UHGV virus genome: UHGV-0038079
From: a virus
Length of the DNA: 27,742 nucleotides
Reading direction: 5' to 3' (one strand)
The first letter of the stretch is position 1; the number at the start of each line of letters is the position of its first letter. Both the position numbers and the translations under genes were made by a program. The notes under the pieces are model-generated. The model ran no database searches. It was not told the DNA's origin and saw only the letters and a program-made list of their open reading frames with translations. Below are positions 25,668 to 27,742 of the stretch, one piece after another.

Positions 25668-26067
25668 GGCTTTCACCATTAAAAAGTCGCTTGTAAGCAT
25701 CAATGTCTCGTTTTGCTTCACCAAGCTTTCGTCTTAATTCCATGTTTTCTGATTCAAGCTTTTCCATGTCTTGCTGGTATCGATCGCGGTGTTCTTTCCA
25801 TGCTTTTTGATACGCCTTCATGTATGTCATGTTGGCCTTTCTCTTTGCCTGACGAACTGCGTGGTGGTTTTTAACAAACCAGTCAGGGTCGTTAAATGCT
25901 GCTCTGGCGCATGTATACCAATAATTTGTTGCCTCCCTGTTTAGCCAATAAATACTGATAAATGGCAACCGGATAGACACCATTTTTCGTTGTGACTCTT
26001 TCTCGCCAAACATGTGCCCTTTTTTGATGCTAAGGCCAAATCCAGGTTGAATTAAAAGCATTGTCAT
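25600..26067 (-). CDS. Hypothetical protein, about 155 aa, between ninE and ninF
   Basis: ATG 26067 overlaps the ninE stop (ATGA); predicted coiled-coil segment ([31 protein letters not shown]) and Pro-rich tail; 3' end overlaps ninF by 68 nt out of frame. Confidence 0.45.
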
Positions 26068-26240
26068 TTCCTCGCACGATGTCTTAGCCACCGGATATCC
26101 CACAGGTGAGCCGTGTAGTTGAAGGTTTTTACGTCAGATTCTTTTGGGATTGGCTTGCGTTTATTTCTGGAGCGCTTCGTTGGAAGGTATTTGCAGTTTT
26201 CGCAGATGATGTCGGTGATACTTCGTCGCTGTCGTCTCAT
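26064..26240 (-). CDS. ninE: NinE-like protein, 58 aa
   Basis: [47 protein letters not shown] matches lambda NinE as recalled; ATG overlaps the dam stop (ATGA). Confidence 0.75.
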
Positions 26241-26764
26241 GCTGCCCTCCTGACGCCCTGCCCGATCGCCATCAATGCCGCTTTGGATACGGTAGTAAAC
26301 ATCCGTCGAGGACTGATGAACGGTCGCCAAATCAGCAGCATGGAACCTTTGCTGTTTCCCTTCTTCTCCAGCCCTGTCGATGGTTCGATAAAATTAATCC
26401 GTCCATCAGTGATGATGCGAACTTCGTCAACACTCTCCAGAGCCTTGCTGAACCATCCGACAGACATATCCTCTGGCACAAGCATCACTACCGTCTGTCG
26501 CTGTTGCATGCACTGCTCAGCGGCTTTTTCCACCCACGGCCTGATATTGCTGTACGGTGGGTTATTCCAGATTGCACCGTGGCTTATCCACTCAGAATTT
26601 AGCGCGTCGTCAGCCTCAGTTAGCCAGTGAGCGCACAGAGCATTTTTGTCGCTCGCTGCCGAATCCAGCCAGAATCCAAACTCAATATCCAGTGCATCAA
26701 AAAGCCAAAGCGGCGTTTGCCAGCAGTCCTTGTCGTGTGCTGGCGTATTTGATTTGATAGTCAT
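26237..26764 (-). CDS. Phage-type DNA N6-adenine methyltransferase (orphan Dam family), about 175 aa
   Basis: [16 protein letters not shown]-terminus and NPPY catalytic motif (IWNNPPYSN); ATG 26764 overlaps the ninB stop. Confidence 0.8.
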
Positions 26765-27201
26765 GCAGCCCGATCTCCCCATCGCGCTTTCCATTCGAGA
26801 GCCAGTCGCGCTTCGTCTGACCACTTAACGCCACGCTCTGTACCGAATGCCTGTATAAGCTCTAATAGCTCCGCAAATTCGCTTACACGCATCCTGCTGG
26901 TTGACTGGCCTATTACCACAAAGCCATTCCCGGCAAGGTTAGGAACAACGTCCTGCTGCTTTAATGCTGCGGTAAACACACACTTCCAGCTTTCTGCATC
27001 CAGCCAGCGCCCATGCCATTCAACCTGACGAGAGACGTCACCAAGGCAAGCCCAAAGCTTTCGATTCTGGTCTAAGCTGCGGTTGCGTTCCTGAATGGTT
27101 ACTACGATTGGTTTGGTTGGGTCTGGAAGAATTTGCTGTACCGCGTGAATAGCGTTTTGCTGATGTGCTGGAGATCGAATTTCAAAGGTTAGTTTTTTCA
27201 T
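26761..27201 (-). CDS. ninB: NinB recombination protein, 146 aa
   Basis: MKKLTFEIRSPAHQQNAIHAVQQILPDPTKPIVVTIQERNRSLDQNRKLWACLGDV... essentially the lambda NinB sequence as recalled; start set at MKKLTF (27201). Confidence 0.9.
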   Translation of the reverse strand: MKKLTFEIRSPAHQQNAIHAVQQILPDPTKPIVVTIQERNRSLDQNRKLWACLGDVSRQVEWHGRWLDAESWKCVFTAALKQQDVVPNLAGNGFVVIGQSTSRMRVSEFAELLELIQAFGTERGVKWSDEARLALEWKARWGDRAA

Positions 27202-27278
27202 GACTTCCCTCTCCCCCAAATAAAAAGGCCTGCGATTACCAGCAGGCCTGTTATTAGCTCAGTGATGTAGATGGTCAT
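27198..27278 (-). CDS. Putative 26-codon hydrophobic peptide ORF, translationally coupled between ren and ninB
   Basis: MTIYITELITGLLVIAGLFIWGRGKS; SD GGAGG 8 nt upstream; ATG overlaps the ren stop and its stop overlaps the ninB ATG; encoded across the tR2-like hairpin, so it may be a chance translation. Confidence 0.3.
   Translation of the reverse strand: MTIYITELITGLLVIAGLFIWGRGKS
27216..27250 (-). terminator. tR2-like intrinsic terminator between ren and ninB
   Basis: Minus-strand AGGCCTGC-TGGTAATC-GCAGGCCT (8-bp stem) followed by TTTTTATTT. Confidence 0.6.
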
Positions 27279-27565
27279 TGCCTTACCTCCATAAGCGCCC
27301 TATTAATAAACGCCGTCATTGGATTTGCACATCCCCACCCCGTACCATCTGGATTTCTTTTAATTGGCTCCTTCTTCACTTTGCGTTTTGCATAAATAAC
27401 CGTCTTCCACTTACGCTCAACAACACTCAAATGTCCTTGTTTCACCATATGCCTTGCTGCTTGAGCGATTCTGTTATTTGGTATTCCGGTGATCAGTGCT
27501 AATTCATGTGGGGAGAATTGTTCATGAGTTTTCAGATATTCCAGGATGATTTCTTTTCCAGTCAC
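27275..27565 (-). CDS. ren: Ren-like protein, 96 aa (GTG start)
   Basis: MTGKEIILEYLKTHEQFSPHELALITG... matches the lambda Ren N-terminus as recalled (MTGKEAIIHYLGTH...); same length; SD GGAG 8 nt upstream. Confidence 0.7.
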   Translation of the reverse strand: MTGKEIILEYLKTHEQFSPHELALITGIPNNRIAQAARHMVKQGHLSVVERKWKTVIYAKRKVKKEPIKRNPDGTGWGCANPMTAFINRALMEVRQ

Positions 27566-27742
27566 GATCTGCTCCTGTAACTATCCCATGTAAACGCAAG
27601 AGTGCACCCGCCGCCATCATTCATCCTGTCAATAACACGCTCACCAATGAATGCAGACAGTTCATCTTGAGCTGGCCCCCTGAAATACCAGACAGTAGAT
27701 GTATCTTAAAATAAGAGATAGGCTTGGATATATGTCTAACAC

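Follow-up and report, generated by a model that had tools for sequence, protein, structure and literature searches.

tR2 is an intrinsic terminator of phage lambda, located where transcription enters the nin/Q region. It halts RNA polymerase that is unmodified, and the genes downstream therefore depend on N-type antitermination. The mini-gene ninA, which carries this terminator, is counted in the literature among the non-essential nin genes. The nin5 deletion takes out the genes ren-ninA-ninI and the phage still grows; the NinA peptide is dispensable.

The relation between tR2 and translation was studied by Li et al. 2015 (NAR 44:2554, PMC4824070), who inserted tR2, preceded by its natural sequence, between genes for RFP and GFP. 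Transcripts ending at tR2 contain no stop codon for the NinA ORF and are, accordingly, non-stop mRNA. The presence of the NinA start site before tR2 cut the expression of the upstream RFP to about half, and RFP was rescued when GGAG in the ribosome binding site was replaced by CCAG or the ATG start codon by AAG, from which it was concluded that the NinA site ‘is not weak’. The GGAG to CCAG replacement also abolished NinA initiation in lambda. Translation of NinA reduced the efficiency of tR2 by only about 10%, a small effect that the authors ascribe to the distance of 30 nt between start and stem, too short for a ribosome to catch the polymerase. With the natural upstream sequence, the efficiency was ~0.8 when a stop codon was located 18 bp before the stem and ~0.9 when it was located beyond 30 bp; it is almost zero when the stop codon sits a few bp before the stem. 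In the reporter, the upstream stop codon did not overlap the NinA ATG, unlike the native ATGA arrangement. The sources given by Li et al. for NinA are Kroger and Hobom 1982 and, for ribosome profiling of lambda, Liu et al. 2013.

Organisation of the ren–ninA–ninB junction

The window analysed here is the whole 27,742-nucleotide sequence of the UHGV virus genome UHGV-0038079. A short ORF comprising 26 codons and a stop codon is located on the minus strand at positions 27278–27198, with an ATG at 27278–27276 and a TGA at 27200–27198; its product is MTIYITELITGLLVIAGLFIWGRGKS. The upstream gene (27275–27565, minus strand) has a GTG start and encodes a 96 aa protein, and its TGA (27277–27275) shares the sequence ATGA with the ninA start codon. 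Downstream, on the same strand, is ninB (26761–27201), encoding a protein of 146 aa (Pfam NinB, E 1.1e-54; PHROG 72). The ATG of ninB (27201–27199) and the TGA of ninA also share ATGA, so the first-pass annotation was right in considering the ORF coupled at both ends. The Shine–Dalgarno (SD) sequence of ninA, GGAGG (27286–27290, minus strand), is 7 nt 5′ of the ATG, within the last codons of the upstream gene. The SD sequence of the downstream gene, in this case ninB, is GGGGGAGAGGG (27207–27217, minus strand); it belongs to the conserved cassette and doubles as NinA codons, covering the end of W21 and the residues G-R-G. The ORF, its SD sequence, both overlaps and the terminator were all found on the minus strand precisely where the earlier annotation had placed them.

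The product of the upstream gene matched PHROG 1687 (‘MarR family’) with an E value of 6e-40 and PHROG 142 (‘Ren-like exclusion protein’) with one of 3.5e-13, and its identity to lambda Ren is 43% over 58 aligned residues. The name ‘ren’ given to this gene earlier is, thus, appropriate in the sense of a Ren homologue (hereafter, Ren-like), but the gene is not lambda ren itself. The distance to the stem of the terminator is 25 nt from the Ren-like stop codon and 29 nt from the ninA start codon.

Of the six reading frames, only that of ninA stays open across the cassette. The best 19-residue Kyte–Doolittle window of NinA has a score of 2.04, in agreement with the earlier description of a hydrophobic peptide of transmembrane length, and the C-terminus GRGKS is basic. 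A hydrophobic segment of this length with a flanking charge is what a small single-pass membrane protein would have.

The early and nin regions of the window are lambdoid and are joined to structural genes at positions 1–21000, which include terminase, portal and sheath-type tail genes. The structural genes are ~95% identical to those of the vB_EcoM-689R2 group and 83% identical to those of Salmonella phage SEN34. This combination indicates that the window represents a prophage under lambdoid regulation whose virion module is of the myovirus type.

Terminator tR2 within ninA

A terminator scan placed the hairpin AGGCCTGC-TGGTAATC-GCAGGCCT at positions 27226–27249 of the minus strand, within ninA codons 10–18. 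The stem, composed of AGGCCTGC and GCAGGCCT, has 8 bp, including 6 GC pairs, and the loop has 8 nt (ΔG −15.1 kcal/mol). The hairpin is followed by a U-tract, TTTTATTT (27218–27225, minus strand), which extends from the end of codon 18 to the first base of codon 21 (L-F-I-W). The ORF does, therefore, physically contain both the hairpin and the U-tract, and this hairpin was the sole terminator-like site found by the scan in the region 26000–27742. The stem, loop and U-tract are identical to those of lambda tR2 (J02459) and of the tR2 oligonucleotides of Li et al.; the primers used in that work contain the same GGAG...ATGACCATC sequence and the same hairpin as the window. The relation to tR2 noticed in the first-pass annotation is thus correct, and the designation ‘tR2-like’ is too cautious, since the hairpin is lambda tR2 base for base. 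A recent record for phage 21 (OL657228.1) also shows a hypothetical protein with a terminator annotated inside it. The structure has been maintained in evolution, and the stem variants C33T, C51T and C52T found among copies of this hairpin (type A) result in G-U pairs.

When the segment 27180–27300 was folded, the terminator stem was the sole robust element (z −0.83). A pairing of AUGAC in ninA with GUCAU at the ninB start was present in the minimum free energy fold; this candidate was dropped in view of the z value and the loss of the pairing at other downstream junctions. The sequence contains neither an upstream complement of the 5′ arm of the hairpin nor an alternative antiterminator pairing. 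No Rfam leader family scored above the threshold in this region. The best resemblance was to Trp_leader (27220–27324, minus strand; 19.7 bits, E 0.41, gathering score 41), but an identity with this family was rejected as the score is far below the threshold; the match is probably due to nothing more than the co-occurrence of a short ORF, a hairpin and a U-tract.

Identity and annotation of ninA

The ORF is almost certainly the already named mini-gene ninA of lambdoid phages, which carries tR2, and is not new; the first-pass annotation did not identify it under this name. The peptide encoded in the window is 100% identical to ‘NinA protein’ entries of NCBI and UniRef (AFM76324.1 and others; K7PHM1) and matches PHROG 5907, a family annotated without a function (E 1.6e-19, residues 1–26). 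No family matching NinA was found in Pfam. A megablast search of the region against phage records matched 417 records. The same ORF is annotated as ‘ninA: NinA protein’ between ren and ninB in phage 21 (AJ237660.1), and ‘ninA protein’ is annotated between gene 12 and ninB in P22 (M10074.1; P22 NinA is Q38675). In the Nil3 record (AM051322.1), NinA is annotated with ‘tR2’ within it, and the records of ECP1, mEp234 and PhiR12_4 also label the ORF NinA. As in phages 21 and P22, the ORF of the window is the first nin cistron, located between a replication or ren gene and ninB, with overlapping signals.

The lambda copy differs from the window copy by one synonymous base (codon 5, ATT in lambda and ATC in the window). 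The ORF is, nevertheless, without annotation in the lambda records J02459 and NC_001416, where it occupies positions 40567..40647, and ninA is likewise not annotated in an E. coli chromosome with the same cassette processed by RefSeq/PGAP (NZ_CP025881.1; locus L246, 1323..1403). It is owing to its absence from the lambda and RefSeq annotations that the ORF looks unannotated. A 281-nt query containing the Ren-like end, ninA with tR2 and the ninB start was matched in 2089 of 5426 complete E. coli genomes. A widespread gene is, consequently, missing from the reference records and open to ‘rediscovery’.

Translation of ninA is highly probable. Initiation at its start codon was shown for the lambda copy by the mutations in the ribosome binding site and the AUG, and the window copy is one synonymous base apart, which supports the earlier assignment of the frame as a genuine cistron with an active start.

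Conservation and variation of the cassette

About 330 related loci were gathered in four ways, employing NinB homology, the hairpin alone, the back-translated N-terminus and the second allele described below. An intact ninA frame is present in ~95% of the 190 hairpin-bearing loci, which represent 118 distinct contexts. The ATG is precisely where the conserved block starts, and the gene ends that precede it are of seven kinds: lambda Ren, the Ren-like protein of the window, three helicase/primase C-termini and two small proteins. An SD core (GGAG, GGAGG, AGGAGG, AAGGGG, GGGAG or GAGGAG) is present 6–9 nt upstream in all seven contexts, while SD-like cores occur in the same range at about 10% of random positions of the window. 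The upstream stop codon and the ninA ATG form ATGA in five contexts, TGATG in one and TAAATG in one.

On the downstream side, the cassette precedes about ten different genes; GGGGGAGAGGG is retained, and these genes start 5–9 nt after it. Relative to the ninA stop codon, at least five genes have their start at −1 (ATGA or GTGA) and three at −5; others begin at +3 or +6. The C-terminal 1–8 residues of NinA vary with the downstream junction. This pattern agrees with the ‘chain of interlinked genes’ with ATGA architecture described for the nin region.

Codons 2–10 are located outside the hairpin, and six of their eight common variants are synonymous, the other two being the replacements I to V and I to M. 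Given an expectation of 26% synonymous changes, the excess has a binomial p of about 0.005. Within the hairpin, a change of a loop base results in L13Q in six contexts.

The comparative data contradict the fallback reading of the earlier annotation, that of a frame open by chance across a GC-rich hairpin: the SD sequence and the overlaps are conserved, a second allele exists and the frame is intact in nearly all hairpin-bearing loci.

The cassette of ~80 bp is a discrete mosaic unit, with nucleotide homology that sets in at the ATG and ends past GGGGGAGAGGG but short of the next start codon. Recombination joins it freely to replication and nin modules of different kinds, and it behaves like a conserved linker for module exchange.

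A search with a degenerate back-translated DNA pattern, using one genome per species, found only two Escherichia genomes and suspect contigs, with no deeper spread. The suspect contigs (L211–L229) are ~48.4 kb long or short, with low coverage, and are assigned to Pseudomonas, Oceanobacillus, Bradyrhizobium, Shewanella, Nocardioides and others. These matches are most likely the result of contamination of the assemblies with lambda DNA and not real prophages.

Second hairpin allele and interrupted copies

A second allele (type B) was found in 97 loci. It has an unrelated hairpin, GGGGCTATT-TACAC-AGTAGCCC, followed by TTTTTTATT, with the same 36-nt span, and shares with ninA the first ten codons, the ATG, the frame, the upstream junctions and the hydrophobic character of the product. 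The type-B product, MTIYITELITGAIYTVALFYWIKNEGDPDGHR, has 32 aa and is HK97 gp56. Its frame is open in all 47 distinct contexts, and the stop codon is often located 11 nt inside the next gene, or 7–13 nt before the next start. Stems of types B and C display a compensatory path from T-A through T-G to C-G (loci L311, L247, L316 and L237). The occurrence of two different terminators in one frame argues for joint constraint, with the caveat that an open frame over ~12 codons alone is not improbable.

Examples of type B include loci L029, L044, L053, L067, L233 and L235. Peptides of the HK97 gp56 type are mislabelled ‘histone H1’ in many NCBI entries. In L237, the junction is 1 nt shorter and the ninA frame continues in frame into the downstream gene.

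Some loci deviate from this organisation. In ~17 loci, ninB is located straight behind another gene, with neither ninA nor the tR2 hairpin. Six hairpin-bearing loci are devoid of the 5′ half of ninA and contain an inserted AT-rich HNH endonuclease gene of 203 codons. The insertion point is between ninA codon 9/10 and the stem (L024, 759..1480; also L096, L202 and L173). What remains upstream is a chimera of 34 aa (MTIYITELIAGLSLLMVLTVYIIKYILYANKKTN) whose ORF overlaps the start of the endonuclease gene, and the hairpin begins 1 nt after the endonuclease TAA. The HNH gene looks like a homing endonuclease targeting the conserved ninA/tR2 cassette. The 34-aa chimeric product is common in databases; since HNH-split ninA is common, an intact ninA is not required.

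The same insertion is present in the E. coli matches H111 and H116, and the endonuclease has the motif IDHVNGNRLDNRISNLRLAT. The 34-aa ORF without a hairpin (‘type D’) had been considered as an independent sign of selection for a transmembrane peptide, and was rejected because it is the chimera created by the HNH insertion.

A few ninA copies are frameshifted or shortened after the U-tract. In Klebsiella phage phiKp_30 (L089, 601..690), a 27-aa hydrophobic ORF is kept and the next gene follows 55 nt later; the stem has a C-to-A mismatch (ΔG −8.5 kcal/mol) and the U-tract is interrupted. This phage is the sole case among the loci compared where the frame outlives a good terminator. The counter-examples show the peptide to be non-essential and leave the evidence of selection on its sequence suggestive only.

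Possible functions of the ninA–tR2 cassette

The ~80-bp ninA–tR2 cassette probably combines a terminator, acting as RNA, with a translated linker cistron that occupies the same DNA as a reading frame. By a narrower balance, we infer that coupling to the downstream gene is the function under selection. Ribosomes finishing the upstream replication or ren gene would restart at the overlapping ninA ATG. As the ninA start is only 29 nt before the stem, a new ribosome would not catch the polymerase and termination would stay efficient; transcripts ended at tR2 carry no ninA stop codon and are non-stop messages. On antiterminated, full-length transcripts, the ribosomes would translate through the hairpin and melt it, stopping atop the next start codon just past GGGGGAGAGGG and handing translation to ninB or another next gene. 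The product, a hydrophobic peptide of 26 aa, may become inserted in the membrane. Several observations speak against the linker reading: ninA is dispensable, ~17 loci have ninB but neither ninA nor tR2, the junctions of many type-B copies and of phiKp_30 are not tightly overlapping, and HNH-split copies are common.

It is rather doubtful that the embedding of tR2 in a translated ORF is itself functional, as a built-in switch penalising early transcripts that are not antiterminated. In such a switch, only antiterminated transcripts would contain a complete ninA with its stop codon, while the non-stop message would stall the ribosome, recruit tmRNA and lower expression from the upstream cII-O-P-ren message. 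If so, the cassette could contribute to the dependence of some lambda hybrids on ribosome rescue, and the two unrelated in-frame hairpin alleles would be an evolutionary trace of dual coding; in place of such a switch, or alongside it, a membrane target for the NinA peptide is conceivable.

The linker reading has to be weighed against three others. NinA might have a function of its own as a small membrane protein; it could, for instance, modulate a host membrane protein or serve as an exclusion or fitness factor, and the terminator would then be embedded in its gene for economy. The hydropathy of the 19-residue window and the basic C-terminus are compatible with such a role, and across the two hairpin alleles no frame other than that of ninA is open or strongly hydrophobic; the synonymous excess and conservative replacements in codons 2–10 and the hydrophobic ORF that phiKp_30 retains despite its mismatched hairpin and broken U-tract point in the same direction. 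Hydrophobic codons, however, are yielded almost automatically by U-tracts and AT-rich DNA, L13Q puts a Gln mid-helix in six contexts, and the last 1–8 residues differ at every downstream junction. Taking into account also that the nin region is dispensable, that a literature search gave no NinA phenotype and no experiment on its membrane localisation, that Pfam has no corresponding family and that frameshifted, truncated and HNH-split versions are in circulation, a membrane protein seems unlikely. Less likely still is the device suggested in the first-pass annotation, resembling an attenuator, where ribosome traffic through the ORF decides termination at tR2. Silencing the ribosome binding site or the AUG shifted tR2 efficiency by only ~10% (Li et al. 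2015), far from the strong change in read-through upon peptide translation that characterises attenuators, and this speaks against control of termination by translation of the ORF. Mutually exclusive antiterminator and terminator helices are not found, nor is a run of regulatory codons, and the 29 nt between the start and the stem are too short for a new ribosome to reach the polymerase. The Rfam score of 19.7 bits compares with a gathering score of 41; the weak, sub-threshold resemblance to Trp_leader (E 0.41) is still a point in favour of this device. It is also favoured by the location of the terminator wholly within a translated ORF and by the near-complete repression of tR2 when a ribosome stops a few bp before the stem. 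Moreover, the reporter of Li et al. 2015 did not reproduce the native ATGA, at which a ribosome trailing the polymerase could restart. Such a device remains improbable.

Deletions of the nin5 type render lambda N-independent. This indicates that tR2 works in vivo although ren and ninA are translated, which is a further argument against an attenuator. Finally, the frame might be an untranslated product of chance, conserved only as a terminator, an SD sequence and a recombination linker between phage modules. A frame of ~25 codons open by chance is not unlikely, the cassette is highly conserved in nucleotides and located at mosaic junctions, and the ORF is not annotated in J02459, NC_001416 or the RefSeq E. 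coli chromosomes. Against this stand the SD sequence and ATG with an overlapping or abutting stop codon in seven of seven unrelated upstream contexts, the stop/start overlap kept with many different downstream genes, the third-position bias of variation before the hairpin and the initiation demonstrated experimentally (Li et al. 2015). A chance frame is, therefore, already largely refuted and can be given very little credence.

Comparison with known systems

NinA is similar to the type I toxins Hok, Ldr, TisB and Ibs in its length and single hydrophobic helix but, unlike their genes, ninA is an internal cistron of a long operon. No promoter-like sites were found on either strand in the region 26000–27742, and no Rfam antitoxin families were found; the idea of a type I toxin–antitoxin system was dropped, as there is no antisense promoter in that region. 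We know of no report of NinA toxicity. The leader-peptide attenuators of trp and pyrBI are like ninA in that a short translated ORF is located before or over an intrinsic terminator and a ribosome could mask the stem. In contrast to these leaders, ninA has no antiterminator helix or regulatory codons, and its ORF runs past the terminator to the next gene.

The allele encoding HK97 gp56 is closer. It shares with the window the first 10 codons, the upstream junctions, the 36-nt spacing, an in-frame hairpin with a U-tract and the hydrophobic product. It differs in the unrelated hairpin GGGGCTATT/AGTAGCCC, with a ΔG of about −11 to −13, in a longer C-terminus and in the stop codon, which is usually 11 nt inside the next gene, whereas the window has ATGA.

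The closest counterpart is NinA itself (lambda/21/434, P22 Q38675, K7PHM1, PHROG 5907), which the window resembles in the 26-aa sequence, the location, the ATGA overlaps and the hairpin. Compared with lambda ninA, the window has a diverged Ren homologue upstream and ATC as codon 5; otherwise, nothing of substance differs. Judged by its sequence, the terminator of the window is identical to lambda tR2 and, like it, is located where the nin region is entered, and an efficiency of ~0.9 was measured in reporters for the identical sequence (Li et al. 2015, PMC4824070). The ninA–tR2 cassette is a clean natural case of a terminator within a translated, coupled cistron; it belongs to a well-studied system and does not constitute a novel type of element.
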